A DNA stretch of 34,305 nucleotides from a virus. Below are positions 1,687-32,894 of this stretch, in pieces. Positions within the stretch are counted from its first letter, which is position 1, and each line of letters opens with the position of its first letter. Below the pieces are notes generated by a model. That model made no database searches. It worked only from the letters and a program-made list of their open reading frames with translations, and was not told the DNA's origin. The stretch lies in the IMG/VR virus record IMGVR_UViG_3300047552_000023. One strand, written 5' to 3'. Both the position numbers and the translations under genes were made by a program.

Positions 1687-1693
1687 TCAAACT

Positions 1694-1719
1694 GGGGGGC
1701 TAATCACCCCCCTTTTCTT
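1694..1719 (+). terminator. Rho-independent terminator after the capsid gene
   Basis: GGGGGG (1694-1699), loop ctaatca, CCCCCC (1707-1712), then ttttctt. It starts 8 nt after the capsid stop. Confidence 0.75.
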
Positions 1720-2028
1720 ATGCGCCACATAGCAACAGACAACGGAAAAGCAACAAACTTTCACGATCTTGATGGAAAGTATTTCATTGAGACTAAGCAG
1801 GACATTTCTGGCATCTTGGAGAGCAACAAAGCTCAATTCAACGCCATTGATGAGAAAGCTAAGTGGGGTGAGTTCACAAAGATTGCCTCATTGCCAAACG
1901 TAGTGATTGATGACTTGAACAAACAAGGCATCATGCGTGGTTATGCGGTGATGGATGAAAAAAGATTTCGTGCCTTCTTGAATCACCCTGATAATCGGTT
2001 CTTTAGAACTCGACCAGGTCAGATATGA
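1720..2028 (+). CDS. Hypothetical late protein (102 aa)
   Basis: ORF in the late operon whose stop overlaps the next start (ATGA). No SD is visible because the ATG abuts the terminator T-tract. Confidence 0.5.
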   Translation: MRHIATDNGKATNFHDLDGKYFIETKQDISGILESNKAQFNAIDEKAKWGEFTKIASLPNVVIDDLNKQGIMRGYAVMDEKRFRAFLNHPDNRFFRTRPGQI

Positions 2029-2645
2029 AGGTTGCTATTTGCGTCCCATGCCGTGACACCGTAATGACGGGTTTTGCCTTTGATTTGGCGAAGCTCTGTG
2101 CTTATGAAGGTGTTACTCGGTGCGCTAAAGGCGGCTCGTTGATGATTTATCAAGTGCCTGGCACATTGATCTTCAATCAACGCGAACGACTTGCAGAACA
2201 AGCAATCAAGGATGGCGCTGACGCTATTCTGTGGATTGACTCTGATATGCGTTTCCCAAAAGATGCGCTTCAGATTCTCTTGTCTCGTAAGTTGCCTATC
2301 GTTGGAGTTAACGCTACAACTCGCAGATTCCCATGTTTGCCTACTGCTTTGGACATTGACCAAGAGAACAATGATCTTGTGAAAGTTACAAGTAAGGATA
2401 AAACAGGGTTAGAGCAAGTTATGGGCGTTGGTTTTGGAATGGTTCTTATCCGAAAAGAAGTATTCCAAAAAACAGAAAAACCTTGGTTTTGGTTTGAACA
2501 GACCGACAAAGGTGGGACAATTGGGGAAGATATTTACTTTTGTGCAAAGGCGTTTGACGCTGGTTTCAAGACTGTTGTAGACCACGATCTATCGAAGCAC
2601 ATTAGGCATATCGGAACTTACGAATATGGTTGGGATGATGTATGA
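2025..2645 (+). CDS. GT-A fold glycosyltransferase (family-2-like)
   Basis: 206 aa. It has a DXD-type motif in ILWIDSDMRFPKDAL, then GFGMVLIRKEVF and GEDIYFCAKAFDAGF, a layout typical of small GT-A enzymes. ATGA overlaps occur at both ends. Confidence 0.65.
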   Translation: MKVAICVPCRDTVMTGFAFDLAKLCAYEGVTRCAKGGSLMIYQVPGTLIFNQRERLAEQAIKDGADAILWIDSDMRFPKDALQILLSRKLPIVGVNATTRRFPCLPTALDIDQENNDLVKVTSKDKTGLEQVMGVGFGMVLIRKEVFQKTEKPWFWFEQTDKGGTIGEDIYFCAKAFDAGFKTVVDHDLSKHIRHIGTYEYGWDDV

Positions 2646-3262
2646 GCATTGCCAGTTACTCAGAATTGCAGACAGCGGTAGCTAGTTATCTGGCGCGTAC
2701 AGACTTAACTAGCCAGATCACCGATTTCATTCGGTTTGCTGAACTGCGTTTGCGCCGTGAGTTGCGCATCCGTCAGATGTTGAAGTCTGTAACGACTACG
2801 ACAACAAGTGGTGACTCTACTGTTGAGTTGCCTAGTGATTTCTTGGAGATCAGGGACTTTGTGGTGTCTACAAACCCACTTCAGCCTTTGACATACTCAA
2901 GTCCATCAGCGTTTAGCCGTAATGCTCGCACGACTGAAAGCGGCAAGCCACTTGATTACACCATCTTGGCTAACGAGTTCCAACTGGCTCCTATACCTGA
3001 TTCAGCCTATACGGTAAAACTGCTGTATTACGCTGCTCCTGAATTCTTGAGCGACACAAATTCAAGCAATGCGTTTGTTGCCAATGCGCCTGACGCTTTG
3101 CTTTACGCTGCTTTGCTAGAGGCAGAGCCATTCTTGATGAATGACGCTCGAATCAATACATGGGGAACTATGTACGACAGAGCAATTTCAACCCTGACAA
3201 AATCTGACGAGTCATCTCAGTATTCAGGCGTTCCACTTTCAATGACACTTGCAACGAGGTAA
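2642..3262 (+). CDS. Virion structural protein, head-tail adaptor-like
   Basis: 206 aa. The N-terminus YSELQTAVASYLARTDLTSQITDFIRFAELRLRRELR resembles a widespread phage structural family, as I recall it. It lies between the capsid and tail genes. Confidence 0.45.
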   Translation: MSIASYSELQTAVASYLARTDLTSQITDFIRFAELRLRRELRIRQMLKSVTTTTTSGDSTVELPSDFLEIRDFVVSTNPLQPLTYSSPSAFSRNARTTESGKPLDYTILANEFQLAPIPDSAYTVKLLYYAAPEFLSDTNSSNAFVANAPDALLYAALLEAEPFLMNDARINTWGTMYDRAISTLTKSDESSQYSGVPLSMTLATR

Positions 3263-3264
3263 TC

Positions 3265-3651
3265 ATGTCTGAAATGTCAAACTACTTGGAAAATGCGTTG
3301 GTTAACGCAGTTCTCCGCAACACAAGCTACGCAAGCCCATCTACCGTTTATTTGGCGCTCTACACAAGCGACCCAACAGACGCAGATTCAGGCACAGAGG
3401 TGTCTGGCACTTCTTACGCTCGTCAGTCAATCACTTTTGGTTCGCCTTCTAACGGTGTGACCACAAACAGCGCAGCAATTGAGTTTCCTCAAGCTGGTGG
3501 CTCATGGGGAACGATTACCCACGTTGGCATCCGTGATGCTTCTACAAGCGGTAATCTGTTGTTTCACACTGCCTTGGATGCTTCTAAAACAATCGCCACT
3601 GGTGACGTTTTCCGCATCGCATCAGGTTCACTGAGCGTGACATTGGCGTGA
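3265..3651 (+). CDS. Conserved small virion protein (128 aa)
   Basis: GAGG RBS. The sequence YLENALVNAVLRNTSYASPSTVYLALYTSDPTD...GTEVSGTSYARQSITF...WGTITHVGIRDA resembles a recurring phage structural family. Function is unknown. Confidence 0.5.
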   Translation: MSEMSNYLENALVNAVLRNTSYASPSTVYLALYTSDPTDADSGTEVSGTSYARQSITFGSPSNGVTTNSAAIEFPQAGGSWGTITHVGIRDASTSGNLLFHTALDASKTIATGDVFRIASGSLSVTLA

Positions 3652-3652
3652 T

Positions 3653-4480
3653 ATGGCTGACCTGCTCCCACCGTGGACAATTGACAGCCTAGATAATCTC
3701 AAGGCTAGTCTTGACGACTTAACGCTATCTCTTGATAGTGAGTTATATACAACGTCAGTCACACTGTGGGATGCGTACGGGTCAGTATCGACTAGCGCAT
3801 CAGTATCGGCAGAATCAAGCGTCACATTTGCTGGCGCTGCTTCTGTTTCCTCATCTGCATCTGTCTCATGTGAGGCTATCCGTGTTGCACTAGGTACGGC
3901 ATCCGTAGATGCTTCTGCAAGCGTTTCTTGTGATGCTGTGAGGGTTGCTATTGGCTCGGCAGATATAAGCGCTTCTGCGGCTGTTTCTGCGGCTGGACAG
4001 CGTATTGCTATCGCATCGGCTGACGTTTCTTGCGAAGCTACTGTCACGGCTCTTGGTGGAATTGTTGCAAACGCTACGGCTGACATTTCTGCAAGTGCCA
4101 CTGCATCTGCTGATGCAATCCGAGTTCGTGAGGCTGATGCTGAAATTTCTGCATCTGCAACAGTTACCGCCTTGGGTGGTATTACGGCTGACGGGTCTGC
4201 ATCTGTAACCTGTGACGCAACATTTGAGGCTGATGGTTATGCCATATTCGATTTCACTGCGGCTGTGGATTGCAACGCTGTTGTTGTTTGCAATGGGGTG
4301 CGTGTGGGCGATAATTGGTCTAACGTACCAGTTAGCACAGATACTTGGGCTGATGTGTCGCAAAACGACAACACTTGGTCAGAATCGAGCGTAGGCTCAA
4401 ATTCTTGGTCAGATGTTGCGAGTAACTCAAACACTTGGGCGCAAACTGCCTCAAGTTCAAACACTTGGCTGAGACAATGA
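3653..4480 (+). CDS. Repeat-built Ser/Ala/Val-rich fibre-like virion protein
   Basis: 275 aa. It has about 8 degenerate 18-20-aa units (ASVSC[ED]A[IV]RVA[LI]GxA..AS) followed by six exact 10-aa W-repeats. The stop overlaps the next ATG (ATGA at 4477-4480). Confidence 0.65.
   Translation: MADLLPPWTIDSLDNLKASLDDLTLSLDSELYTTSVTLWDAYGSVSTSASVSAESSVTFAGAASVSSSASVSCEAIRVALGTASVDASASVSCDAVRVAIGSADISASAAVSAAGQRIAIASADVSCEATVTALGGIVANATADISASATASADAIRVREADAEISASATVTALGGITADGSASVTCDATFEADGYAIFDFTAAVDCNAVVVCNGVRVGDNWSNVPVSTDTWADVSQNDNTWSESSVGSNSWSDVASNSNTWAQTASSSNTWLRQ
4310..4480 (+). repeat. 30-bp-period coding repeat (6 x W-x9 decapeptides)
   Basis: DNW SNVPVST / DTW ADVSQND / NTW SESSVGS / NSW SDVASNS / NTW AQTASSS / NTW LRQ. 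Trp falls at residues 3, 13, 23, 33, 43 and 53 of this segment. aacacttgg recurs three times. Confidence 0.85.
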
Positions 4481-6129
4481 CAATACAACGCGTTCCATTA
4501 GGTGAGTGGCTACCAGACCAACCAGGTCTAATTGGCGCTATCACCAAAGCCCAAAACTGCTACCCAACACAGACAGGCTATGCGCCTTTCCCGTCTGAGG
4601 CTGACTTGTCTGCTGCGGCTGACGAAAACCTGATGACATTGGCCTACTCAAAAGACCAATCAGGCACGATCAAGCTGTTTGCGGCTGGTGAAGACAAGAT
4701 TTATACGGTTGATTCTGTTGGCGCTTTGACACCTGTTTGGTACACGGCTGGAACTTACGATCAGGCTGGTTCTACCACTTTGACAGTTACGGCTACGGCT
4801 CACGGATGGAAAACTGGCGATTCTGTCTATTTGAACTTTACAAGTGGCACAGCGGTAGATGGTGATTTCACCATTACCAAGATTGACGCAAACAGTTTTT
4901 CAGTTACCACAACGTCAGCGACAACAAGCGGAAACGTAAGAATCTCGTCAACATCGTCAGGACTTAACACGCCTGCTGGTCAGCGCATCCGATTCACTCG
5001 ATTCGGAAACCGCACAATCGCTGCTAACTTTGGTGATCGCCTTCAGTCTTTTGTGGCTGACACAAGCACATCTTTCCGCAATCTTGCTGACAATGCGCCG
5101 ATTGCCAAGTTTGTGACTGTTGTTCGTGACTTTGTGGTTGCGGCAAACACAACCGACAACTCAGGCGACTACCCTTATCGCGTTCAATGGTCTGGCTTAA
5201 ATGACGAAACGACTTGGACTTCTAGCCAAATCACTCAAGCTGATTATCAAGACATTCCTGATGGCGGTCATATTACTGGTATTCGTGGCGGTGAGTTTGG
5301 TCTTATCCTGATGGAAAAGGCAATCCATCGTATGAGCTACGTTGGTACGCCTTTCATTTTCCAGTTTGACAACATCAGCCGTGAGAAAGGTTGCATTGCG
5401 TCAGGTTCAATCAGTCAATATCAAGGCTTGACGTTCTTCTTGTCTGATGACGGGTTTTATCTGTGTGACGGTCAACAAGTCATGCCAATTGGCGCTGAGA
5501 AGGTAGATCGCTTTTTCTTTAGTGACGCTGACCCTGACTTCTCAACAATGTCATGCGCTGTTGACCCAGTTCGCAAGCTCGTTTTGTGGAACTACAAGAG
5601 TCGTTTTGCAGAGCGTAAGTTGTTGGTTTACAGCTTCACCACAAAGAAGTGGTCTGTGATGATGACCACGTCCGACTACATTTCTGACGCTACAACCGCA
5701 TCGGTTACGCTTGAGGAATTGGACAGCATCAGCGCGTCAATTGACGATTTGGCTGTGTCTTTGGATTCAAACCAATACGCTGGTGGCAAATACTTCTTGG
5801 GTGGAACTACTGGCACGAAAGTCATTACGTTCAACGGCACTAAGAAAACAGCGACCATTGAAACTGGTGACATTTCCACTGGTGGCAGATCGTTGGTAAC
5901 CTTGGCTCGACCACAGGTTGATAACGGCTCTGCATCGGTTGCATTGGCTTCTCGCACATTGTTGAGCGATGGCGTGACATTCGGCACAAGCACAGCGGCA
6001 GACTCTGACAACAGGGTTTCTTTGCGTGGTTCAGGTAACTACCACCGCCTACAAGTTACACCAAGCGGTGATAACTGGAATATGGCTGTGGCTGTTGATA
6101 TTGACGTTGTACCTCAGGGGATTCGCTGA
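4477..6129 (+). CDS. Tail tubular/nozzle-like structural protein
   Basis: 550 aa from ATG 4477 (MTIQRVPLGEWLPDQPGL...). It is large, beta-rich and sits between the fibre genes. The N-terminal motif resembles podovirus tail proteins, as I recall them. Confidence 0.5.
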   Translation: MTIQRVPLGEWLPDQPGLIGAITKAQNCYPTQTGYAPFPSEADLSAAADENLMTLAYSKDQSGTIKLFAAGEDKIYTVDSVGALTPVWYTAGTYDQAGSTTLTVTATAHGWKTGDSVYLNFTSGTAVDGDFTITKIDANSFSVTTTSATTSGNVRISSTSSGLNTPAGQRIRFTRFGNRTIAANFGDRLQSFVADTSTSFRNLADNAPIAKFVTVVRDFVVAANTTDNSGDYPYRVQWSGLNDETTWTSSQITQADYQDIPDGGHITGIRGGEFGLILMEKAIHRMSYVGTPFIFQFDNISREKGCIASGSISQYQGLTFFLSDDGFYLCDGQQVMPIGAEKVDRFFFSDADPDFSTMSCAVDPVRKLVLWNYKSRFAERKLLVYSFTTKKWSVMMTTSDYISDATTASVTLEELDSISASIDDLAVSLDSNQYAGGKYFLGGTTGTKVITFNGTKKTATIETGDISTGGRSLVTLARPQVDNGSASVALASRTLLSDGVTFGTSTAADSDNRVSLRGSGNYHRLQVTPSGDNWNMAVAVDIDVVPQGIR

Positions 6130-6976: not shown

Positions 6977-7882
6977 ATGGCAGTCGAAACCGCAACATCC
7001 ACACAAACCACACAGATTGACCCAACGATTCAGCCGTTTCTGAAATACGGTCTGGAAGAAGCTCAACGCTTATATCAAGCTGGTGGCCCACAGTATTACC
7101 AAGGTCAAGGCTATGTCGGCCCATCTGAAGCAACTCAGACTGCATTGCAGGCATTGCAAGCTCGCGCTGGTGCTGGTAGTCCTTTGTTGGGTTCTGCTCA
7201 AAATCAATTGATGGGTACTATCCAAGGTGACTATCTTGGTGGCAATCCATTCTTTCAAGGTGCTTTTCAGCCTGCCGCACAAGCTGCGACAAACGCTTTT
7301 AACACTGCAATCGGTAACGTTGCATCACAAGCGTCTAAGGCTGGTCGTTATGGCTCTGGCGCTATGACAAACCTTCAGAATCAAGCTGCTAACACATTGG
7401 CACAAAGCCTTACAGGTACGGCTGGACAATTGGCATATCAAAACTATGCTGACGAACGCGCTCGCCAACAGCAAGCAACATTCGGTGCGCCTCAAATGGC
7501 TGCTGCTGACTATGCTGACATTCAGCAAATGTTGGCTGCTGGTCAATTGGGCGAAGGCTACAAACAGCAAGCTCTGCAAGCTGATATGGCTAAGTATGCT
7601 TACGAGCAAAACTTGCCACAGCAGCAATTGACGAACTATCTGAATCAAGCTTACGGTTTCCCTGCTGGTCGCACTGCAACAACTCAAACACCTTACTTCA
7701 CTAACCCAACAGCTACGGCATTGGGTACAGGTTTGTTGGGTGTTCAATTGTTGGGTGGTCTTGATAAATTAGGCACTGGTGGAACTGGTGGTCTACAACA
7801 AGGTTGGAATTGGCTAACTGGTGGTTCAGGGACAAACTATGGTTCGATGCCTAGTGGCGTAGATCAATGGTGGTTAGGATAA
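6977..7882 (+). CDS. Internal virion/ejection-type protein (Gln/Ala/Gly-rich)
   Basis: 301 aa with an AAAGGTG RBS and low-complexity Q/A/G composition. It is the first of three consecutive such genes, as in podovirus core/ejection sets. Confidence 0.45.
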   Translation: MAVETATSTQTTQIDPTIQPFLKYGLEEAQRLYQAGGPQYYQGQGYVGPSEATQTALQALQARAGAGSPLLGSAQNQLMGTIQGDYLGGNPFFQGAFQPAAQAATNAFNTAIGNVASQASKAGRYGSGAMTNLQNQAANTLAQSLTGTAGQLAYQNYADERARQQQATFGAPQMAAADYADIQQMLAAGQLGEGYKQQALQADMAKYAYEQNLPQQQLTNYLNQAYGFPAGRTATTQTPYFTNPTATALGTGLLGVQLLGGLDKLGTGGTGGLQQGWNWLTGGSGTNYGSMPSGVDQWWLG

Positions 7883-7885
7883 ATC

Positions 7886-9190
7886 ATGGCACTTTTAGAC
7901 TTTTACGGCGAAACGCCTTCATACCTTGGTGGCTTGCTAGGCTCTGACGAACTAAAGCGTTTGCAAGAGCAAGCTCAAAGCCAATCAAATCTAGGCATGG
8001 CTACTGCGCTGCTTCAGGCTGGCGCTCCAAGCCGTACACCTGGCGGTGGCGCTTTGGCTATTGCTCAAGGCTTGCAAGCTGGTCAACAGCTCTACAAACA
8101 GGCTTTGAACCAAGGTCTGCAAGAGAAAATGGCTGCAATGCAAGTCGGTGAAATGATGCGAAAGCAACAAGAAGCAGAGGCAGTGCGCCGTTTCTTGCCT
8201 AGTTTGATTCAGCCTGGTGCTGTTACGACAACACCAGAGCAACTGACAATGTACGGTCAGCCAACTCAAGGCGTTGTGCGCGATGACGAAGGTAACTTGA
8301 TGCCTGGCGCTGGTTTTATTCCTGCAACTAGAACACAAGCTCCTAGCACGATCAATCGTGAGGCTTTGCAACGTTTGGCTTTGGTTTCTCCTGAGACTTA
8401 TGCAAAGTACAAACCTGAGTACAAAGAAGTAAATGGTCAATTGGTTGAGATTTCGCCATTAGGCGGAATCACAACTGTTGCAGGTCAAGCAAAAGAGGAT
8501 TTGGCTGGCCCTGTTAAGCAGGCAATGCAAGTGCTTGGTATCACAAAGCCATTTGCTGAAGTAACTCCACAAGAGCGTTCAATGATTGGAAACTACATTG
8601 ACCGTCAAGAATCTTTGAAAGCTCCAAAGGTTGCTGTTGACTTGAAAGACCCGACAGCAGTTGCCAAGGCTCAAGCTGATTTGCTCAAAGATTGGCGCAG
8701 TGTTGTAAAAGACAGCGGTGCAACTGAAATTGCAAACCGTTTTGTTTCTCTTGGCGCTGCCATGAATGAAGCAAACAAAGGCAATAAAGCTGCTGACGGT
8801 GCAATCATCTACAACATCGGCAAGATTTATGACCCATCTGGCGCTGTGCAAGAAGGCGACAAAAACACAATTCTTGGCAATCGCTCAATTCCTAACGAGG
8901 TCAAGGCATACGCTCAGAAGGTGTTTGAAGGCGGTTCGTTGTTGCCTCAAGAGCGTCAAGGTCTGTATTCTGTTGCTGGTGCAATGGTTAAGCAACGTCA
9001 GAAACAATTGCAAGCAGATCAAGCAAACTACAAATCATTGGCTACTCAATTGGGTGGCACAGGTGATTTCATCAAAGACCCATTTGCAGATGTTTTTAGT
9101 CCTAAAGTTGAACAGAATCCTGTTCTTGATTTAGGTACTGCATCAGCACAAGCCGCTGAAATCCTCAGAAAACGCCGAGGTGGTCAATGA
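7886..9190 (+). CDS. Internal virion/ejection-type protein
   Basis: 434 aa with an AGGA RBS. Called on synteny with the neighbouring core-protein genes. I recognised no catalytic motif. Confidence 0.45.
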   Translation: MALLDFYGETPSYLGGLLGSDELKRLQEQAQSQSNLGMATALLQAGAPSRTPGGGALAIAQGLQAGQQLYKQALNQGLQEKMAAMQVGEMMRKQQEAEAVRRFLPSLIQPGAVTTTPEQLTMYGQPTQGVVRDDEGNLMPGAGFIPATRTQAPSTINREALQRLALVSPETYAKYKPEYKEVNGQLVEISPLGGITTVAGQAKEDLAGPVKQAMQVLGITKPFAEVTPQERSMIGNYIDRQESLKAPKVAVDLKDPTAVAKAQADLLKDWRSVVKDSGATEIANRFVSLGAAMNEANKGNKAADGAIIYNIGKIYDPSGAVQEGDKNTILGNRSIPNEVKAYAQKVFEGGSLLPQERQGLYSVAGAMVKQRQKQLQADQANYKSLATQLGGTGDFIKDPFADVFSPKVEQNPVLDLGTASAQAAEILRKRRGGQ

Positions 9191-11208
9191 ACCCAGATTT
9201 AACACTGCTATCTGACAAAGATTTAGAGGCTCTTTCTTCAGGAAAGATTGAGCTAATGTCTGACGCTGGATTGGCAATTCTTGCTGGTGAACAGCCAAAG
9301 GTTGCCGCTCCTAAGAAGATGACGGCAAAAGAAGAAGTGCAATCTGCTTTTGGATTTGATAAACCAAAGCCTCAAACTCAATCGGCTGGCGATCTTCTGC
9401 GTAATCTTGGGCTGACTGCTCGAGGTGCTTTAACTGGTGCTGCATCGTTGCCAGCCATGATTGCTGACGTTCCTGCAAGCCTTGTTAATCTTGCTGCTGG
9501 TCGTCAAATCTACAAGCCACAAGCAGAGGCTTTTGGTGATTTCTTGTCTTCTTTAGGCGCTCCAAAGGCTGAAACTCCAGCAGAACGCTTAATGACTGAA
9601 TCCGCTGCCGCCATTGGTGGTGTTGTTGCTCCTGCTGGAGTCGCTCAGAAAATTATTAGTTCTGCAATACCAACTGGATTGCTACCTGCCGCAGAAAAAG
9701 GCGTTTCACAAGCTGTATCAAGTGGGGCGGTAAGAGATTTCCTCGCAACAGGAAAGCCAATCACAGGTTATCAATTTGTTTCTAATGCGCCTGCAAGCAT
9801 TGCATATCCGACAATGATTGCTGAAAACGTGCCAGCTCAAATTGCTGCTGCTACTGGTGGTGCATTGGCTGGTGGTGCTGCGCGTGAAAGCGATGCAAAC
9901 CCATTGATGCAATTGATTGCTAGTATCGGTGGCGCTGCAACTCCAGCAGGCGCAATGGCTCTTGGCCCTGCTACTGTTAGAGCTGCAAAAGAGGTTGTTC
10001 GACCTGGCACTCAGGCTGGTCGTGAAGCTATTGCAGGCGGTGTGTTGCGTCAGTTGTCGCGTGAGCCTGAAACTGCAATTAAGGCGATGGAAGGTTATCA
10101 AGCTCCTGTTTCTGGTTACACCCCAACAGCAGCCCAAGCAAGCCGTGACGTTGGTTTGATTGCTGCTGAAACACCTATCCGAGCATTGGATGTAACTGGT
10201 AAATTTGGCGCTCAAGCATCTCAGGCAAATCAGGCTCGTATGGCAATCCTAGACCGTTTGGCCAAGGATAAACAAGCATTGGAATTTGCTGTTACAAAGC
10301 GTGATGATGTGTCAGACCCATTGCGTGAAGCGGCATTTGCCAAGTCAACAGTAAGTCCAGAAACTTTCCAATCTGCTGTCAATCTGACTGTAAATCAAAC
10401 AATTGATGACATTCTTGGTTCTAGTGCTGGCGCTCGTTCTACTGTTGAAAATACGATGAATTGGGCAAAAGAACAGATCAAGCGTGGCACTACTCCAGAG
10501 CGTCTATATGAGGTTCGCAAAGACTTGCGTGATGCTTCTCAAGGTCGTTTGGATAAAGATGGGGCGGCTTACAGCTTGGCAAAAGGTCAATTGGAACAAG
10601 TCATTAGATCAATTGATGATGCAATTGACGCTGCTGCACCTGGCTACAAAGACTATCTTAAAAAATACGCTCAATCTAGCAAGGGAATTGAGAAACTTGA
10701 AGCGGCACAAGAGTTCCGTGGGAAAGTTCTTTCAACTACGCCAGACCCTTCGCGCATTGGCGACTACATGATTTCACAGCCTTCATTCACACGCGCAATT
10801 CGTAATGCTGAAAAAGAGACTAATCTTTCAAACACTCAATTGGCTGTTTTGAAGAAAGTCGCTCAAGACTTGGATTCTGGCGTGTTGAATCGTGCGGTTA
10901 AGACACCTGGCTCTGATACATTCAAGAATCTAAGCACAGCAAATATCATTGGCGCTTTCATTGGAAAACAAATGTTTGGTGAAGTTCCAGCAGCAGTGAA
11001 TAAAGTTGCTGCGCCTTTGAATTGGCTCTATAACGGCACAGACGATCAGATTCGTGAGTTGTTGGTAGATGCCATGCTTGACCCGAAACTTGCGTCTAAA
11101 CTGATGACTAAGGCATCTGTCGTGAGTGTTGAGCCACTTAGCAAAGAACTTCAACGCAAAGCCATTGCCGCTGGTTATGGCGCTTCATTTGGATTAACGG
11201 AGAAATAA
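9187..11208 (+). CDS. Internal virion/ejection-type protein (largest, 673 aa)
   Basis: ATGA overlap with the upstream gene. It has an Ala/Gly-rich N-terminal third and a helical C-terminal part. It is the largest ORF in the tail region but is not tape-measure-like. Confidence 0.45.
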   Translation: MNPDLTLLSDKDLEALSSGKIELMSDAGLAILAGEQPKVAAPKKMTAKEEVQSAFGFDKPKPQTQSAGDLLRNLGLTARGALTGAASLPAMIADVPASLVNLAAGRQIYKPQAEAFGDFLSSLGAPKAETPAERLMTESAAAIGGVVAPAGVAQKIISSAIPTGLLPAAEKGVSQAVSSGAVRDFLATGKPITGYQFVSNAPASIAYPTMIAENVPAQIAAATGGALAGGAARESDANPLMQLIASIGGAATPAGAMALGPATVRAAKEVVRPGTQAGREAIAGGVLRQLSREPETAIKAMEGYQAPVSGYTPTAAQASRDVGLIAAETPIRALDVTGKFGAQASQANQARMAILDRLAKDKQALEFAVTKRDDVSDPLREAAFAKSTVSPETFQSAVNLTVNQTIDDILGSSAGARSTVENTMNWAKEQIKRGTTPERLYEVRKDLRDASQGRLDKDGAAYSLAKGQLEQVIRSIDDAIDAAAPGYKDYLKKYAQSSKGIEKLEAAQEFRGKVLSTTPDPSRIGDYMISQPSFTRAIRNAEKETNLSNTQLAVLKKVAQDLDSGVLNRAVKTPGSDTFKNLSTANIIGAFIGKQMFGEVPAAVNKVAAPLNWLYNGTDDQIRELLVDAMLDPKLASKLMTKASVVSVEPLSKELQRKAIAAGYGASFGLTEK

Positions 11209-25900: not shown

Positions 25901-25924
25901 AAGGCAGTTCGCTGCCTTCTTTTT
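25901..25924 (+). terminator. Strong rho-independent terminator between the early and late operons
   Basis: AAGGCAG (25901-25907), loop ttcg, CTGCCTT (25912-25918), then cttttt. It lies 45 nt after the last early stop and 11 nt before the first late ATG. Confidence 0.8.
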
Positions 25925-25935
25925 GAAAGGCTCTT

Positions 25936-26364
25936 ATGGCTGGCTTACTCGCCCCTGCTGCTGAAATCAAAGTTGAAATCGAGGAAATCGAGGCAGAAAA
26001 GCCCGTCATCGAAGGCTTGACAGCAGAATCAAACAAAAAAACACGCGATACCTTGGTTGAGACTCAGATGCTCGGCCCTGTCAAGGTTGACGCTCCAAAC
26101 AGCGAATACTGGCGCGGTCTTGCTAACGTCTGGCGTACATCTCCTGACCAAGCAAAACGCCGTCTGTGCGCTAATTGCGAATACTTTGACGACCAACCTG
26201 AAACCTTGGAAGCAATGGAAGTCGTGCCACAGGATGAGTTTGACAAAGACGGTGGTGGTCGTGGTTACTGCCACAAGTTTGAGTTCATTTGCCACAACCT
26301 TCGCGTCTGTAAGGCTTGGGAAAAAGCACCTGTGATGAAAGAGGCTGAGTATGAAGATGACTAA
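25936..26364 (+). CDS. Cys-cluster protein with HiPIP-like C-terminal motif
   Basis: 142 aa with a GAAAGG RBS and an acidic N-terminal half. The C-terminus is RLCANCEYF...GYCHKFEFICHNLRVCKAWEKA. For comparison, HiPIP as I recall it reads CANCQFM...GCQLFPG...WCASW. Confidence 0.5.
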   Translation: MAGLLAPAAEIKVEIEEIEAEKPVIEGLTAESNKKTRDTLVETQMLGPVKVDAPNSEYWRGLANVWRTSPDQAKRRLCANCEYFDDQPETLEAMEVVPQDEFDKDGGGRGYCHKFEFICHNLRVCKAWEKAPVMKEAEYEDD

Positions 26365-26515
26365 AGCTGGAGCCAAGAAAGTTGGCAAAGTAATGGGCGA
26401 ATACAAATCTGGCACTTTGCACTCAGGCAAAGGTGGAAAGGTTGTCACAAACCCAAAGCAAGGCATCGCAATCGCTTTGAGCGAGGCTAAAAAAGTGATG
26501 AAAAAGAAAAAGTGA
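26351..26515 (+). CDS. DUF6496-like basic microprotein (54 aa, below the track cutoff)
   Basis: Hand translation gives MKMTKAGAKKVGKVMGEYKSGTLHSGKGGKVVTNPKQGIAIALSEAKKVMKKKK. GAGG lies 6 nt upstream. It overlaps the upstream gene by 14 nt and the next gene by GTGA. Confidence 0.55.
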   Translation: MKMTKAGAKKVGKVMGEYKSGTLHSGKGGKVVTNPKQGIAIALSEAKKVMKKKK

Positions 26516-27144
26516 TTCCAAAGCGGCTTCACTTTGTTTGGGTCGGTGACGAATCCAAACGACCAGATCATTGCATTGAGACTTGGAAAACCCTGAATCC
26601 TGACTATGAGGTGAGGATTTGGGGCAATGCAGACCTGAAAAACACAAAATGGTTCAATGCCAAGCACATTCAGGAAATGGCTAAACACGAACTTTGCGGT
26701 GTTGCCGACCTGATGCGCTATGAAATCCTTTACAACGAAGGCGGGATAACGCTAGATGCTGATTCTGTCTGCCTTGCACCGCTAGAGGATTGGCTACTAA
26801 AGCCTGATGCTTTTGCGCATTGGGAACAGGAAACCCGAAGACATGGGCTGATTAACGTCAGCGTCATGGGTTCAATTCCACAAAATCCCTTCTTTGGTCA
26901 ATGTATTGAAGACCTAAGAGCCAAGGAAACCGTCACAAAGTACAGAGCTTGGGAAACAACTGGCCCAATGCACATTACTGAGGTTTACCATCAAACAGAG
27001 TATCCATTGACTGTTTACCCTTCACACTATTTCACAAGAGATCACTTCTCTGGATATAGGTACAAAGGCAACGGTCATTGTTTCGCTACCCAATTTTGGG
27101 GTTCTACAAAAGGCTATGAAAGGGCTAAAGAGTGGAAGATTTGA
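26512..27144 (+). CDS. DXD glycosyltransferase of the Gly_transf_sug type (GT32/Och1; TcdA/B-like sugar-binding region)
   Basis: 210 aa from GTG 26512. IPKRLHFVWVGDE and VADLMRYEILYNEGGITLDADS match the LHFVWIGG / ASDILR..L...GG.YLDVD signature. Confidence 0.8.
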   Translation: MIPKRLHFVWVGDESKRPDHCIETWKTLNPDYEVRIWGNADLKNTKWFNAKHIQEMAKHELCGVADLMRYEILYNEGGITLDADSVCLAPLEDWLLKPDAFAHWEQETRRHGLINVSVMGSIPQNPFFGQCIEDLRAKETVTKYRAWETTGPMHITEVYHQTEYPLTVYPSHYFTRDHFSGYRYKGNGHCFATQFWGSTKGYERAKEWKI

Positions 27145-27764
27145 TCGAAAACAGAGACGGATGGTGGTGGCCGAAGGCTGACGTTGAGGCGTGGAAATGG
27201 ATTCCCCGTGAGATGCAGGCCATCCCTGAGTTGGTGAAGTGGGTCCCACAGCGTAATTTGGTTCTCCATGCTGGTGGCAATTGCGGTGTCTGGTCAAAGA
27301 TTTATTCACAGCTTTTCACCAAAGTCGTGACTTTTGAGCCTGATGATGTGAACTATGAGTGCTTCAAGCGCAACGTAGACGAGCAAAATGTGGAAATCTA
27401 TAAGGCTGGTCTGTCTGATAAAGCAGGTTTTTGCCGCATGGTTGAGGGCGATGGCGAGAAGAACGCTGGTGCGCTCCAGATTGAGGAATGTGAATCTGGC
27501 ATCCCAATGATGACCATTGACAGCCTGAATCTTGACCCTGATTTGCTTCAGTTGGATGTTGAAGGGTTTGAGGAAAATGCACTCAAAGGCGCAAAGAAAA
27601 CCATCATGCGCTCACGCCCGATCATCATCATTGAGCAAAAGAAGCTCGGCAAAAACGGCATGACAGACCCCGAAATTGCTATAATGATTCAACGAATGGG
27701 CTACTTTTTCGCAGAGCGAGTGTGGTCTGATAACGTCTTTATTCCTGTGGAATTGGTTGACTGA
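27132..27764 (+). CDS. FkbM-family SAM-dependent methyltransferase
   Basis: 210 aa from GTG 27132 (13-nt overlap). VLHAGGNCGVWS...VVTFEPDDVNYECFKRNV...YKAGLSDKAG...DLLQLDVEGFEENALKGAKKTIMRSRPIIIIE is the Methyltransf_21/FkbM pattern. Confidence 0.8.
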   Translation: MEDLIENRDGWWWPKADVEAWKWIPREMQAIPELVKWVPQRNLVLHAGGNCGVWSKIYSQLFTKVVTFEPDDVNYECFKRNVDEQNVEIYKAGLSDKAGFCRMVEGDGEKNAGALQIEECESGIPMMTIDSLNLDPDLLQLDVEGFEENALKGAKKTIMRSRPIIIIEQKKLGKNGMTDPEIAIMIQRMGYFFAERVWSDNVFIPVELVD

Positions 27765-27765
27765 T

Positions 27766-29118
27766 ATGGACAATGAGTACCTAAAACGAATCTATGGCTT
27801 GCTTGAGTCTGGTGCGACTTTAGGTACTGGTGCTGTCTCAGGATTGGTTGGATTGCCATACGGTCTGTATAAAGGCGTTACAAGCGGTGCTTACGGTACG
27901 CCTGAAGCTCCAAGGATTGCGGCAAGAGAAGCGCAGCAGTTCATGGAGCGCAACACTTATCAACCAAGAACGGCTGAAGGTCAGGCAAATTTACAGCAAT
28001 TGGCTGGTTTGCTTGAGGCATCCAAACTGCCGCCTGTGATTCCTGAAGCCTCATTGTTGGCTGCTATTCCAAAACAAGCGTATGCGGCACAAGCTGAACG
28101 CGCTGGTATGGCGGCTGAGAAAGCCATTGCTCCTGTCGTGACTCGCACAATGGAGCGTGGCGGTCTGCCTGCTCAATTATTGGGTGATCTGAGCCAAGGT
28201 TCTATCAGGCAAATGGATGTTTGGCATGGTTCTCCACACGGCCCATTTGGTAGCTTTGACCCAAGCAAGGCTAGAACTGGCGAAGGTAATGCAACATTTG
28301 GTGAGGGTGCATATTTAGCCCAAGCTCGTGGTACAGGTGAGACATATAGAAATTCATTAAGCGATTTTGATTCTTATGTTGATGGAAAACCATTCAATCC
28401 AGATGAAATCTCTCACATGGCTGCAATGAGCGTATATCAAGCTGGAGACAATAAATCAAAAGCTATTGATACACTAAAAGAAGCAGTAAAAGATTTAAGT
28501 TCTAGAAATACAAAATGGGCTAATGATTTAGCATCTCAAAAACAGAAAGAAATTGATTATTTGAGCAAAGTAAAAGATTTGCCAAAATATGAGGAATCTT
28601 CAAAAGGCTATATTTATAAAGTAGATTTGCCTGACGAATCTATTGCAAAGATGCTTGATTACGACAAGCCATTGAGCCAACAGCCTAAAGAGGTTCAGGC
28701 TGCATTGGCAGAGCTTGGTATTAAGGTAGATAAAAAGAAGGTTGATGAATATTCTGATTCATTGCTTGATGCTTTGACAAATCCTAACTCAACTGGGAAG
28801 CTGCCTAAACAGCCAATTGACCTAACTGGTGAACAAATCCTGAAAGAGCTTGAGCGTAATCCATCTAGGTACTTTCCAAACGCAATGGAAGGAAAGGAGC
28901 TTACGGCTGCAATGATTAACCCTAGAGCTGGCGTTAGTGATTTGCTCGCTCAGAAGGGTATACCTGGCGTTCGATACCTTGACCAAATGAGCCGTGATGC
29001 TGGTGAAGGCACTTCAAATTTTGTTGTGTTTCCAAAATATCAAGAAACTCTAAAGATCAAAGAGATCAACGACAAACCTTATGAACAATGGTTTCCTAAG
29101 ACAAATCTGCTAGACTAA
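27766..29118 (+). CDS. 450-aa protein with PARP-like H-Y-x motif set (possible ADP-ribosyltransferase-fold effector)
   Basis: The start is ATG 27766, or TTG 27757 with an 8-nt overlap. The motifs are VWHGSPHGPFGSFD, TFGEGAYLAQARGTGETY, GYIYKVDLPDESIAKMLDYDKPLSQQP and GIPGVRYLDQMSRDAGEGTSNFVVF. The N-terminal 150 aa are Ala/Gly-rich, like the ejection proteins. Confidence 0.7.
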   Translation: MDNEYLKRIYGLLESGATLGTGAVSGLVGLPYGLYKGVTSGAYGTPEAPRIAAREAQQFMERNTYQPRTAEGQANLQQLAGLLEASKLPPVIPEASLLAAIPKQAYAAQAERAGMAAEKAIAPVVTRTMERGGLPAQLLGDLSQGSIRQMDVWHGSPHGPFGSFDPSKARTGEGNATFGEGAYLAQARGTGETYRNSLSDFDSYVDGKPFNPDEISHMAAMSVYQAGDNKSKAIDTLKEAVKDLSSRNTKWANDLASQKQKEIDYLSKVKDLPKYEESSKGYIYKVDLPDESIAKMLDYDKPLSQQPKEVQAALAELGIKVDKKKVDEYSDSLLDALTNPNSTGKLPKQPIDLTGEQILKELERNPSRYFPNAMEGKELTAAMINPRAGVSDLLAQKGIPGVRYLDQMSRDAGEGTSNFVVFPKYQETLKIKEINDKPYEQWFPKTNLLD

Positions 29119-29164
29119 CCACATATCAACAACACCAACGAGCCGTAAGGAATTGGTACACAAA

Positions 29165-29431
29165 ATGAGCAAAGCTGGTCGCCCCATTGGGAAGTTACAT
29201 CAAGACGACATTCGCAAGAAAATCCAAGCGAGTCAATTGATAAATGTCTTGCAAGATCATGCACTTACAGGTGAAGGCGAAATAACGCCTACACGCATGA
29301 AAGCAATTGAAATCCTTTTGCGTAAATCTATACCTGATTTGAGTTCTGTTGAGATTAGCGGTGACGAGGCAAACCCGCTAAACATGATTCAGACCATCAA
29401 CATCAATCTCAAGAAGCCTAATGAATCTTGA
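29165..29431 (+). CDS. terS: Terminase small subunit (putative)
   Basis: 88 aa. MSKAGRPIGK...TPTRMKAIEILLRKSIPDLSSVE resembles small-terminase N-termini. It overlaps the terL start by 11 nt. Confidence 0.55.
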   Translation: MSKAGRPIGKLHQDDIRKKIQASQLINVLQDHALTGEGEITPTRMKAIEILLRKSIPDLSSVEISGDEANPLNMIQTININLKKPNES

Positions 29432-30671
29432 ACTAGATTTCCCTGAAAAACTGGGATTCTTGTTTGAGCCAGCACGATACAAAATCCTTTACGGTGGTAG
29501 GGGTTCAGGTAAATCGTGGGGTGTTGCTCGCGCTTTGATCGCCATTGCAGTTCAAAAGCCGACTAGGGTTCTCTGCGCCCGTGAGCTTCAAAACTCAATC
29601 TCAGACTCAGTTATTGCCCTGCTCCATGACCAAATCAAGGCTATGGGGCTTGAGTCGTTTTTTGACGTACAGCGTACAGCTATCTACGGAGTCAACGGCT
29701 CTGAGTTCTCGTTTGCTGGTCTGAAACACAACGTCACATCCATCAAGTCGTTTGAGGGCGTGGATATTTGCTGGATTGAAGAAGGTCAGGCGGTGTCTAA
29801 AGTCTCTTGGGAAACCCTGATTCCTACCATCCGCAAGCCAAACTCTGAGATTTGGGTGACTTTCAACCCTGATCTAGATACTGACGAGACTTACAAGCGA
29901 TTCGTGATTAACGCGCCAGCAAGCGCACAAGTCCACAAGGTCAACTGGTCTGATAACCCTTGGTTTCCTGAAGTTCTCAAAGAGGAGCTTGAAAACCTCA
30001 AAGAGAAGGACATGGACAGCTATCTCAACGTCTGGGAAGGTCACACCCGTCAGATGTTGGATGGCGCTGTTTACGCTAACGAGCTAAGAAAAGCCCAAGA
30101 GGACAACAGAATCCGTGACTTGCTGATTGACAAGACTATCCCTGTCCAGACGTTCTGGGACTTGGGGTGGGCAGATATGACTTCAATTTGGTTTGTTCAG
30201 GCAATCCCTGGCGGTGAAGTGCGAGTCATCGACTTCTATCAAAACTGCCAAAAGCCAATTGACCACTACGCTCAAATCCTGCAAGACAAGGGCTACATCT
30301 ATCGTGATTGGTGGCTACCACACGATGCAGAACACAAGAATATGACGGGTCGTTCGGTCAAAGACATTCTGACTGAGATGGGCAAACCAGTACGAATCAC
30401 GCCAAAACTGTCAATTTCTGACGGTATCAACGCTGCTCGTATGCTGCTCAACAGGTGTTACTTTGACGAAACACGCTGTGCTGACGGACTCCAAAACCTA
30501 CGCCATTACCGCTATGACGTAGACCCAAACACAAAGATGTTTAGCAATAAACCGCTTCACGATCAGCACTCACACGCTGCTGACGCTTTCCGTTACCTTG
30601 CCGTTGGACTAGATGAATCAGGTTCATCTTGGTCTAAATCCATCAACCAACCAAAGAAATGGGTCGTATGA
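29421..30671 (+). CDS. terL: Terminase large subunit
   Basis: 416 aa. It has a Walker A in YKILYGGRGSGKSWGVARAL, a Walker B-like VDICWIEEGQ, and C-terminal nuclease acidic residues (WDLGWADMT, HDAEH, HAADAFRY). Confidence 0.9.
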   Translation: MNLELDFPEKLGFLFEPARYKILYGGRGSGKSWGVARALIAIAVQKPTRVLCARELQNSISDSVIALLHDQIKAMGLESFFDVQRTAIYGVNGSEFSFAGLKHNVTSIKSFEGVDICWIEEGQAVSKVSWETLIPTIRKPNSEIWVTFNPDLDTDETYKRFVINAPASAQVHKVNWSDNPWFPEVLKEELENLKEKDMDSYLNVWEGHTRQMLDGAVYANELRKAQEDNRIRDLLIDKTIPVQTFWDLGWADMTSIWFVQAIPGGEVRVIDFYQNCQKPIDHYAQILQDKGYIYRDWWLPHDAEHKNMTGRSVKDILTEMGKPVRITPKLSISDGINAARMLLNRCYFDETRCADGLQNLRHYRYDVDPNTKMFSNKPLHDQHSHAADAFRYLAVGLDESGSSWSKSINQPKKWVV

Positions 30672-30856
30672 ACTACATAATCCGCAAAGGCGATATTCCT
30701 GACAACCGTAGAATTGAGGCACTTGAGCGCCGAATTGATTTGCTTGAAAATATGGTAAACGCATTACAATCGGAGCAACGCCCAAAGATGGGCAGGCCAC
30801 CAAAGGTAAAAGATGAGCCAAGAAAAACTGAAAGCGATCATCTCAGCGGAGATTGA
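30668..30856 (+). CDS. Small ORF (62 aa) between terL and portal
   Basis: ATGA overlap with the terL stop. It contains a coiled segment and GRPPKVK. It overlaps the portal start by 44 nt, so coding status is uncertain. Confidence 0.35.
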   Translation: MNYIIRKGDIPDNRRIEALERRIDLLENMVNALQSEQRPKMGRPPKVKDEPRKTESDHLSGD

Positions 30857-32894
30857 TAACTCGATTGGTTTCTTAGAAACAGAAACCACGCAACAACGCA
30901 CAGACGCAATTCAAGCCTATTTGCGTCAACCTTACGGCAACGAGGTCGAAGGTAAGTCATCCATCGTTACTGGTGAAGTCGCTGAAGCTGTGGATGGCGC
31001 TTTGCCACCTTTGGTTCGCATCTTCTCGTCAAGTGACGAAGTTGTGCGCTTTGACGCTCGTGGCCCACAAGATGAGGCTGGCGCTAAACAAGCCACCGAA
31101 TACTGTAACTGGGTGTTCATGCGTGACAATGACGGTCTTATTGTCATGCACGATTGGTTCAAAGATGCTCTATTACAAAAAGTTGGTGTCGTTAAAGCCT
31201 ATTGGGAAGACAAAGAAGACGTCACGAAAGAAAAATATCGTGATCTGTCTGACGATGAGTTGGCAATGCTTCTTTCTGACGAAACAATGGAAGTCGTTGA
31301 GAAAGAGGTTGTCGAAAACGAACTGCTAGACCCTATGGGTAATACTGTGCTTGACCAACTCGGTCAGCCTGTGATGTATTCGTCTAACAGCGTAACAGTT
31401 CAAAAGAAAAAGAAGTCTGGTCATGTGGTTGTGGAAAACATACCGCCAGAGGAGTTCTTGATCTCCAAGCGTGCCAAGCGTAGCCCTGAAGATTCGCCAT
31501 TTGTGGCACATCGCCGCCTAATCACTCGTAGCGACTTGATCGCAATGGGTTTTGATGCTGACGTGGTGAATGGCTTGCAATCGTCAGATTCGCTGACTTT
31601 CTCGCCTGAATACTTGGCTCGCGTCAGCAACGGTGAGAATCCTGATGACGGTCAAAGCCTTGACGAAGCAATGCAAACCATTGAGGTGTTTGAGTGCTAC
31701 GTTCGCGCCGACATTGATGGTGACGGTATCGCTGAACTGCGCCAAGTTTTCTACGCCTCAAACGAGATTTTGAGCGATGAGGAAACTGACTACGTTCCGT
31801 TCCACTCACTCTGCCCAATCCCAACTCCACACAAGTTTTTTGGCGAATCGTTGGCAGATCGCACAATGGACATTCAGCTTATCAAGACCACTCTGACTCG
31901 TCAGATTCTCGATAACCTGTATCTAACAAACAACGCCCGTGTGACAGCCGTTGACGGTCAAGTAAACCTTGACGACTTGCTGACTTCAAGCGCAGGTGGT
32001 GTGATTCGCGTAAAGACGCCTGGCGCTGTGAGCCAATTGAATGTGCAATCAATCGCAGGTCAGACATTCCCATTCTTGCAATACCTTGATTCTGTCCAAC
32101 AGAAACGCACTGGCGTAACTGAGGCAAGCCAAGGCTTAGACCCATCTATCCTGCAAAACGTCACTGCCGCTGCTGTTGCTTCTATGCAGCAAAGCTCTGC
32201 TGGCAAGATTGAGATGATCGCTCGAATCTTTGCTGAAACAGGCGTTAAGTCATTGTTCAAAGGCATCTTGCATCTTCTCTGCAAGTACCAAGACAAGCCA
32301 CGAATCATCCGTATGCGTGGTCAATACGTTCAATTTGACCCACGTGAGTGGTCGAATCAGTACGATGTGGACATTAACGTTGGTTTGGGCGCTGGCAACC
32401 GCCAAGAGCAAATGGCAATGTTGAACATGGTTCTCGCTAAACAAGAGCAAATCTTGGGTCAAATGGGGCCAGCTAATCCATTGGTAACAATGGGTCAGTA
32501 CCGCAACACATTGGGTCGTATGGTTGAAGCTGCTGGCTTTAAGGATTCTGCCGAGTTCTACAAGTCCATCACGCCTGAACAAGATCAGATGATGAGCCAA
32601 CCACAACCTCAACAACAGCAAATTCCACCTGAAGTGCAAGCGTATATGGCTAAGACTCAGGCAGATATTCAAGCTCAACAAGCTAAAGCACAGGCTGACA
32701 TTCAGTTGGCACAGCAAAAAGCTGTTGCTGACTTGCAATTGATGCGTGAAAAGAACGCTGCTCAGATCGAATTGGAGCGTGAAAAGGCTGCTGCTCAAAT
32801 GGCTCTAAAGCAAGAGGAATTCTTGGCAGAGGCTCAAATGAAAGCCATGAAGGTTGGTGCTGGCATCACTTCTAACGTTGAAATTCCAGGTTAA
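30813..32894 (+). CDS. Portal protein
   Basis: 693 aa. DGDGIAELRQVFY...PHKFFGESLADRTMDIQLIKTTLTRQILDNLYLTNNAR...GGVIRVK is a typical portal core. The C-terminal tail is Gln-rich and coiled. Confidence 0.85.
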   Translation: MSQEKLKAIISAEIDNSIGFLETETTQQRTDAIQAYLRQPYGNEVEGKSSIVTGEVAEAVDGALPPLVRIFSSSDEVVRFDARGPQDEAGAKQATEYCNWVFMRDNDGLIVMHDWFKDALLQKVGVVKAYWEDKEDVTKEKYRDLSDDELAMLLSDETMEVVEKEVVENELLDPMGNTVLDQLGQPVMYSSNSVTVQKKKKSGHVVVENIPPEEFLISKRAKRSPEDSPFVAHRRLITRSDLIAMGFDADVVNGLQSSDSLTFSPEYLARVSNGENPDDGQSLDEAMQTIEVFECYVRADIDGDGIAELRQVFYASNEILSDEETDYVPFHSLCPIPTPHKFFGESLADRTMDIQLIKTTLTRQILDNLYLTNNARVTAVDGQVNLDDLLTSSAGGVIRVKTPGAVSQLNVQSIAGQTFPFLQYLDSVQQKRTGVTEASQGLDPSILQNVTAAAVASMQQSSAGKIEMIARIFAETGVKSLFKGILHLLCKYQDKPRIIRMRGQYVQFDPREWSNQYDVDINVGLGAGNRQEQMAMLNMVLAKQEQILGQMGPANPLVTMGQYRNTLGRMVEAAGFKDSAEFYKSITPEQDQMMSQPQPQQQQIPPEVQAYMAKTQADIQAQQAKAQADIQLAQQKAVADLQLMREKNAAQIELEREKAAAQMALKQEEFLAEAQMKAMKVGAGITSNVEIPG

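Follow-up and report, generated by a model that had tools for sequence, protein, structure and literature searches.

What kind of protein does a phage encode directly ahead of its DNA-packaging genes, and might it leave the virion together with the DNA? The question is raised by an open reading frame (ORF) of 450 codons plus stop, located at positions 27766..29118 on the plus strand of the IMG/VR virus record IMGVR_UViG_3300047552_000023; the term window is used here for the whole stretch of 34,305 nucleotides that was analysed. An earlier reading of this ORF from its sequence alone had taken its product for a late protein with the motifs of PARP-like ADP-ribosyltransferases (ARTs), a candidate for carriage in the capsid and injection. 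The ORF is real; the gene call made for the source metagenome holds the identical protein, on a contig of 34,307 bp. Its description as a late protein, which derives only from gene position, was not confirmed. The interpretation favoured here, at a probability of roughly 60%, is that the product is a packaged and ejected mono-ART effector, with an N-terminal module that would serve delivery and an ART domain that would modify the host. The ART domain is assigned as a divergent member of an already described, very large family, and the idea of a packaged effector was itself published in 2017; what appears to be undescribed is the module with its exchangeable cargo, together with a consistent Asn418/Asp406 configuration of the ART domain.

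Family and fold of residues 148-436

The family assignment comes by way of relatives. Searches of Pfam, NCBIfam, PADLOC and the sequences of the PDB with the window protein returned nothing significant; its sole direct match was PHROG 873 (E 2e-5), a 1,277-position profile of the head-and-packaging category annotated as 'endolysin'. As a label for the N-terminus this match was rejected, the matched stretch being the start of the ART domain. A DNA search of a phage collection gave no match. In a search of 5.8 billion proteins, 986 relatives were found, and each of 57 full-length homologues (38-93% identical) was scanned: ART-PolyVal (PF18760) was detected in 23 of them at E <= 0.01 (best 5.4e-10), DUF3990 in nine and PARP in one. 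The ART-PolyVal matches that were inspected start a few residues ahead of the WHGS motif. One relative (P0038), the N-terminus of which is 91% identical, scores 37.1 bits against the PF18760 gathering score of 31.2 bits, and gp273 of Tunturiibacter phage Tunturi_5, which includes a copy of the insert-bearing subtype found in the window, scores 145 bits for ART-PolyVal. By transitive homology, residues 148-436 are assigned to a divergent ART-PolyVal-family domain. The sequence-only reading had pointed to a family of polyvalent-protein domains that it could not name; this was the right family, as many full-length homologues carry PF18760.

ART-PolyVal has been presented as the commonest protein-modifying domain of the polyvalent proteins of phages and conjugative elements, with a His on strand 1, a Tyr on strand 2 and an Asp on strand 5; it is grouped there with Tox-ART-HYD2 and predicted to be delivered by virions (Iyer et al. 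2017, PMC5512222). The window protein and its homologues share with this family the match to PF18760 (among homologues), the placement of His and Tyr, and phage structural-gene contexts; the window protein differs in lying below Pfam detection and in carrying two large, variable helical inserts. The family is very large: a phmmer search with the domain of 1.84 billion cluster representatives (clusters at 50% identity) yielded 10,412 proteins at E <= 1e-3, of which 5,822 reached E <= 1e-10. The subtype occurs in polyvalent or virion-associated proteins that include giants of up to 7,242 residues, Tunturi_5 gp273 and the internal virion proteins of Ampunavirus. Three giants (P0162, P0164 and P0170; 5,727-7,242 residues) have six to seven detected copies of the C-terminal block of the subtype and 12-14 stretches matched by phmmer, in contrast to the single-cargo window protein of 450 residues with its distinct N-terminal module.

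Family profiles gave nothing significant against PDB sequences; the best match of the core profile was PARP12 (E 0.85, not significant), in an alignment that pairs H154, Y183 and Y194 with the His/Tyr/Tyr stretch of PARP12. When the family was compared with compact ART-PolyVal domains by hhalign, the alignment extended no further than the N-terminus common to both and the His/Tyr region. A tblastn search with the compact ART found nothing in phages, and protein searches with the N-terminus alone or the compact ART alone returned only fragments or close relatives.

Evidence for the fold was obtained from structure prediction. An AlphaFold2 model built on an alignment of 57 sequences had a mean predicted local distance difference test score (pLDDT) of 80, exceeding 90 over most of residues 150-445. 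Its modelled order is a strand at 150-156 that holds H154, a strand at 182-185 that holds Y183, a helix at 188-198 that holds Y194 and a short strand; a first helical insert (215-268), a hairpin (275-288 and 297-302) and a second helical insert (308-396); and strands at 401-405, 417-421 and 430-434. His and Tyr thus stand on strands 1 and 2, respectively. Against BFVD, the full-length model matched proteins named 'ART-PolyVal-like domain-containing protein' (E 4e-23 to 1e-6) and many large polyvalent proteins. A core model was also made with the inserts spliced out (residues 146-207, 273-307 and 394-447 joined) on an alignment of the full-length homologues, and reached a pLDDT of 83 and a predicted template-modelling (TM) score of 0.79. 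Among the PDB matches listed for this core, 50 of 50 belong to the ART superfamily: tankyrase 2 (E 3e-3, probability 1.00), cholix toxin, ParT, PARP1/2 and MbcT, and further exotoxin A and its relatives, diphtheria toxin and KptA. Query-normalised TM-scores were 0.30-0.52, the best being 0.47-0.52. A list made up of ARTs only is convincing for the fold despite borderline E-values and an artificial construct, and residues 148-436 are accordingly modelled as an ADP-ribosyltransferase fold. The structure search that the sequence-only reading had proposed as a check upheld, for the insert-deleted core, its call of a PARP/diphtheria-toxin H-Y type. With that clade the domain shares its fold and a pocket of His, Tyr and second Tyr; it differs in having Asn for the Glu, in the borderline E-values, and in the absence of a PARP regulatory domain or a toxin translocation domain.

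Predicted catalytic site and inserts

The three motifs behind the original call are real and near-invariant in homologues; they lie at residues 152-164 (VWHGSPHGPFGSF), 177-194 (TFGEGAYLAQARGTGETY) and 415-425 (GTSNFVVFPKY). The first part of the core (residues 148-205; 28207..28380, plus strand, as are all parts of the gene) consists of strand 1 with H154-G155-S156 (H154 codon, 28225-28227), a conserved loop (F164-D165..K168..G172-E173-G174), strand 2 with Y183 (28312-28314) and a helix with Y194 (28345-28347). The second part (residues 273-306; 28582..28683) is the beta3-beta4 hairpin, and the third (residues 396-436; 28951..29073) has D406 (28981-28983) at the end of the strand GIPGVRYL, a following loop with S409-R410, N418 (29017-29019) in the strand SNFVVF, and the last strand, LKIKEI. 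In the 57 full-length homologues, G155 and N418 are invariant (57/57 each), with H154 found in 56, Y183 in 54, Y194 in 53 and D406 in 50. Wider counts were made over about 180 domain instances in the best 143 representative proteins, taking non-gap residues only, and gave 171/172 for H154, 178/180 for Y183, 175/179 for Y194, 170/171 for D406 and 173/174 for N418. As judged from these alignments, the conservation of the motifs is far from chance, and the pocket residues of the H-Y clade, H154-G155-S156, Y183 and Y194, are retained. A site of the Alt type (Arg, Ser-Thr-Ser and Glu-x-Glu) was not found, the corresponding motifs being HGS, G-x-G-x-Y and T-S-N; nor was a family of the Alt/VIP2 type reported for the window protein by Pfam or PHROGs.

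The residue at the position of the catalytic Glu was compared with the canonical ART-PolyVal copy of Tunturi_5 gp273, in which all 140 model positions are covered and which reads ...AGYDGVLYPPRQEVIAFESRQIKS. By strand order and motif, SNFVVF of the window corresponds to QEVIAF of this copy, and GIPG to GYDG; SNFVVF also corresponds to NEYIVY of PARP1. On this alignment N418 takes the place of the catalytic Glu with which the penultimate core strand of the PARP/diphtheria-toxin clade begins. The sequence-only reading was therefore right that the residue is not Glu, which it had given as Asn or Phe, and the residue can now be named as an invariant Asn. Its description of an H-Y-x variant with altered chemistry or without catalysis stood in part: Glu is replaced, but a loss of catalysis is not implied, because D406, which it overlooked, may be the strand-5 Asp of the H-Y-D description. 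This acidic residue directly follows the modelled strand 401-405 (RYLD), adjacent to the strand of N418, and would be expected at the end of a hairpin facing the N418 site. In the compact ART-PolyVal subfamily an invariant Glu (in VYED or VTEN) is paired with an invariant Asn (in RNIGVF); where canonical and compact domains have the Asp of GYD[GS], the window subtype has Pro or Thr. Taken together, the alignments suggest a possible shift of the acid from the classical Glu position to D406, which may also be the 'Asp on strand 5' of the published H-Y-D description.

Tunturi_5 gp273 itself, a protein of 1,489 residues (positions 1601-6067 of its locus, L005), carries a NUDIX domain, the canonical Glu-type ART-PolyVal, a GNAT domain and an insert-bearing ART of the Asn/Asp type, and adjoins a GP88/pyrophosphatase 'minor head protein'. 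The second ART copy, which reads ...GIKGIKYLD...GTHNYVVF, is 30% identical to residues 146-422 of the window protein. With a Glu-type copy and an Asn/Asp-type copy both present in one protein, the two ART types occur together, and their functions probably differ.

Around this pocket the protein is far more variable. The sequence-only reading had described a single insertion of about 230 residues; instead, two hypervariable helical inserts flank a conserved core hairpin. Insert 1 (residues ~206-272; 28381..28581) has a mean identity of 14% between the homologues and the window protein and ranges from 33 to 76 residues in length; insert 2 (residues ~307-395; 28684..28950) has a mean identity of 20% and ranges from 37 to 120. 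The hairpin between them, GYIYKVDLPDESIAKMLDYDKPLSQQ (GYIYKVDLPD...PLSQQ), is the best conserved block at 73% mean identity, with D287 and M296 invariant, and is modelled as beta3-beta4 of the core. Insert 1 is missing from the Ampunavirus internal virion proteins, and both long inserts are missing from compact ART-PolyVal domains. A conserved pocket combined with surface inserts that vary points to a possible role of the inserts in recognising targets.

The N-terminal module, its cargo and its loci

The first 147 residues (27766..28206) form helices, one of them amphipathic and rich in Gly/Ala (residues ~12-38), and include an Ala-rich stretch of low confidence at residues 87-122. A transmembrane assignment for residues 12-38 was rejected, the peak Kyte-Doolittle hydropathy being 1.18 compared with the usual cut-off of ~1.6. 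Searches of Pfam, PHROG and NCBIfam with this region found no family, the MuF (SPP1 gp7-like) N-terminal domain included. The region behaves as a unit in relatives: its start falls among residues 1-25 in 142 of 151 proteins and, in the first search, it was up to 97% identical across proteins with unrelated C-terminal parts. These parts are a compact ART-PolyVal; LPD23 with an HExxH zincin-like region and a DGNHR ParB-like motif; a MATCAP-like peptidase; and an M78 peptidase. A scan of IMG/VR found 80 loci with the module, and clustering of their cargo gave at least nine types. Most frequent is an unknown domain of about 355 residues (50 loci, or 50 of the 74 complete cargo sequences), followed by the insert-type ART as cargo in 11 loci, the remainder being small groups or singletons. 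The non-ART cargo types sampled gave no Pfam match and had no homologue among the ORFs of the window. On these comparisons, residues 1-147 are a module in their own right, unannotated and N-terminal, which is joined in relatives to nine or more types of cargo unrelated to one another. In relatives with two modules, the modules are linked by GGLLGQ[SPA]KAA, which could be a docking or cleavage motif. At the other end of these proteins, the last residues of 158 sequences were compared: LLD was found in 52 and LLE in 11, regardless of cargo. In the window the C-terminal tail (29074..29115) ends in LLD at 29107-29115, and the same ending was noted among homologues P0013-P0106.

The case for packaging had been built on a resemblance between the N-terminal ~150 residues and a 673-residue protein of the window (9187-11208). 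This resemblance did not survive comparison, as BLASTP gave no N-terminal match of the module to that protein and the module profile, searched against all ORFs of the window, reached it only at E = 10 with a composition bias of 15.6; with it, the original basis for packaging fails. Packaging is supported instead by analogy with independent context, namely the positions of loci and the internal virion proteins of Ampunavirus. The 673-residue protein belongs to a group with proteins of 301 and 434 residues (6977..11208, plus strand), which looks like a trio of ejection proteins; that of 301 residues matches PHROG 4287 ('DNA ejection protein'), and that of 673 is 33% identical over ~600 residues to a protein of 647 residues from MW202879. 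The counterpart of the trio lies at 1129-5607 of a locus used for comparison (L006). In 63 of the 80 IMG/VR loci the gene with the module stands just downstream of homologues of these ejection-like proteins, and in six it is upstream of TerL or portal, as in the window; versions with ART cargo are found at both positions. The module gene thus usually follows the trio in relatives and has been relocated to the terminase side in this phage. ARTs encoded beside terminase, portal or head genes have been argued to be packaged and injected (Iyer et al. 2017, PMC5512222; Iyer et al. 2022, PMC9503650).

Two cultured Ampunavirus phages of the Autographiviridae, RS-PI-1 ('structural protein P5') and AMP1 (gp38), have the same ART subtype as part of their third internal virion protein, which stands at the position of T7 gp16. 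Proteins of the T7 gp16 type are packaged and ejected. The Ampunavirus proteins share with the window subtype the motifs VWHGSP...GTGEGA.AYG.G.Y...Y, GLYRLRV..WDRPLSEQP and GVHGLRYD...NSNYVLF, the Asn included; they differ in that the domain is embedded in an ejection protein of ~1,670 residues and lacks insert 1. They have no homology to the N-terminal module of the window, and the region beside their ART domain is annotated in records as a transglycosylase or an endolysin. By name, RS-PI-1 is a phage of Ralstonia and AMP1 a phage of Burkholderia.

Two other systems invite comparison. The proposed logic resembles that of T4 Alt, an ART that travels in the capsid, enters the cell with the DNA and modifies host proteins (PMC5512222); Alt, however, is of the R-S-E clade and not of the H-Y clade, and has no sequence relation to the window protein. 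Packaging has been demonstrated for Alt; for the window protein it is a proposal. MuF-effector fusions and polymorphic toxins likewise pair an unchanging N-terminal part for delivery with C-terminal effectors that can be exchanged; the window module differs in not being MuF and in matching no described family, and no immunity gene is evident.

Proposed delivery and its alternatives

Several results weigh against a packaged mono-ART. The gene follows genes for a glycosyltransferase and a methyltransferase, both non-structural; a scan for promoters and terminators gave signals at background level and was uninformative; and no similarity could be detected between the module and MuF, the Ampunavirus internal virion proteins or the ejection-like proteins of its own phage. 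The window protein lacks a Pfam, NCBIfam or PDB-sequence match of its own, and fails to match PF18760 even at E <= 10. Its full-length model had no significant match in the PDB (diphtheria toxin and exotoxin A appeared at E ~9), a result that is expected because ~160 insert residues and 150 N-terminal helical residues dominate the alignment; the PDB support that exists is for the insert-deleted construct, at E-values of 3e-3 and weaker and none <= 1e-3. Lastly, the alignments place Asn where the canonical catalytic Glu should be.

Alternatively, the ART effector might be made in the infected cell and not be packaged, like T4 ModA and ModB, with the module providing localisation (to a membrane, for example) or the binding of a partner. 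Translational coupling of the window gene to the genes for the non-structural glycosyltransferase and FkbM-type methyltransferase agrees with this, as do the finding of no known packaging domain in the protein by Pfam and PHROG scans and the presence of an amphipathic, Gly-rich helix in the module. It is nevertheless considered unlikely, as the module gene comes right after homologues of ejection proteins, at the end of the structural block, in 63 of 80 loci, the same ART subtype is found within internal virion proteins of cultured podoviruses, and a constant N-terminus with swapped cargo is what delivered effectors show.

Other alternatives concern the chemistry of the domain. That it is ART-like but non-catalytic, either binding nicotinamide adenine dinucleotide (NAD+) or ADP-ribose or serving a structural role, with transferase activity lost through the change of Glu to Asn, is thought improbable. 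N418 does take the place of Glu in 173 of 174 instances, the canonical GYDG is GIPG in the window protein, and PARP13 and TASOR are examples of pseudo-PARPs that lack the triad; but PARPs of the H-Y-I/L/Y type, also without the Glu, are active mono-ARTs, and the very strong conservation of the His, the Gly, both Tyr, D406 and N418 across thousands of clusters fits an active pocket. Moreover, D406 and N418 co-occur in 229 instances among all sequences compared, and compact relatives keep an invariant Glu before the strand with the Asn. It would be more surprising still if the fold supported a different chemistry, whether that of an NAD+ glycohydrolase or phosphorylase (TNT, MbcT) or the modification of nucleic acids (DarT, KptA). 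MbcT and ParT did give the top TM-scores with the core model (0.50-0.52), KptA was also matched, and catalytic-site residues of the Gln type occur in NAD+-degrading ART-like toxins. Set against this, the pattern H-G-[ST] ... G-x-G-x-Y ... Y is like that of PARP and diphtheria toxin and the best sequence match is PARP12; depletion of NAD+ would harm a phage dependent on host metabolism, and no immunity or antitoxin gene is adjacent to the window gene.

A packaged and ejected mono-ART is thus retained as the preferred interpretation, the cargo swapping on a constant module being counted as support for delivery. The gene would be expressed alongside the packaging and structural genes, and the N-terminal module would load the protein into the capsid or into the ejection-protein complex, from which it would be ejected into the cell along with the DNA. 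There, the ART domain would bind NAD+ through H154, G155, Y183 and Y194, with D406 and N418 positioning the ribose, and transfer one ADP-ribose to a target in the host; the acid that Asn418 cannot provide would come from D406 or from a group of the substrate. The variable inserts would choose the target, and the outcome would be takeover of the host or neutralisation of a defence.

A broader joint reading is offered tentatively, its chances being judged clearly below even. According to it, residues 1-147 would be an undescribed carrier for virion delivery, joined to an active ART with its acid relocated to Asp406 and with inserts that set the target. A podovirus lineage with SU10-type head genes would load one interchangeable cargo as a fourth ejection protein, this cargo being an ART, a zincin or MATCAP-like peptidase or the dominant unknown domain of ~355 residues, among at least nine types, and the shared C-terminal LLD tail might take part in recognition.

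In the literature searched, no characterised ART-PolyVal enzyme was found, activity, targets and delivery alike being predictions. The 450-residue protein is a compact, one-cargo version and hence a convenient test case for the activity of the Asn/Asp variant, for the target modified, and for whether the module suffices for capsid loading and ejection. Should the module prove to be a portable delivery tag, the exchange of injected effectors by small podoviruses would be explained, and the module could be used to load foreign proteins into capsids.

The neighbouring genes complete the description of the locus. Starting 35 nucleotides after the ART gene and on the same strand is a block of three: a small ORF in the terS position with no family match (29153-29431), the large terminase TerL (29421-30671) and an SU10-type portal (30813-32894). 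The head genes are SU10-like, with SU10_portal, SU10_MCP, SU10_adaptor and Gp80 recognised at 736-1686 and 30813-32894 of the window and in neighbours. The nearest relatives are uncultured freshwater phages from Manatee Spring, with portals 72% identical; among cultured phages, Methylophilales phage Venkman has the closest portal (55% identical). Directly upstream of the ART gene, tightly packed at 26351-27764 on the plus strand, are a DUF6496 ORF, a Gly_transf_sug/TcdA_TcdB-like glycosyltransferase (26512-27144) and an FkbM-type methyltransferase (27132-27764); the TGA of the last is followed by one base and then the ATG of the 450-codon ORF. The same trio precedes the gene in a close relative (L003). 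Further upstream, an ORF of 142 residues opens the block that runs into the ART and terminase genes, and just ahead of it, at 25901-25918, is a terminator-like hairpin with a run of T residues, which may mean nothing.

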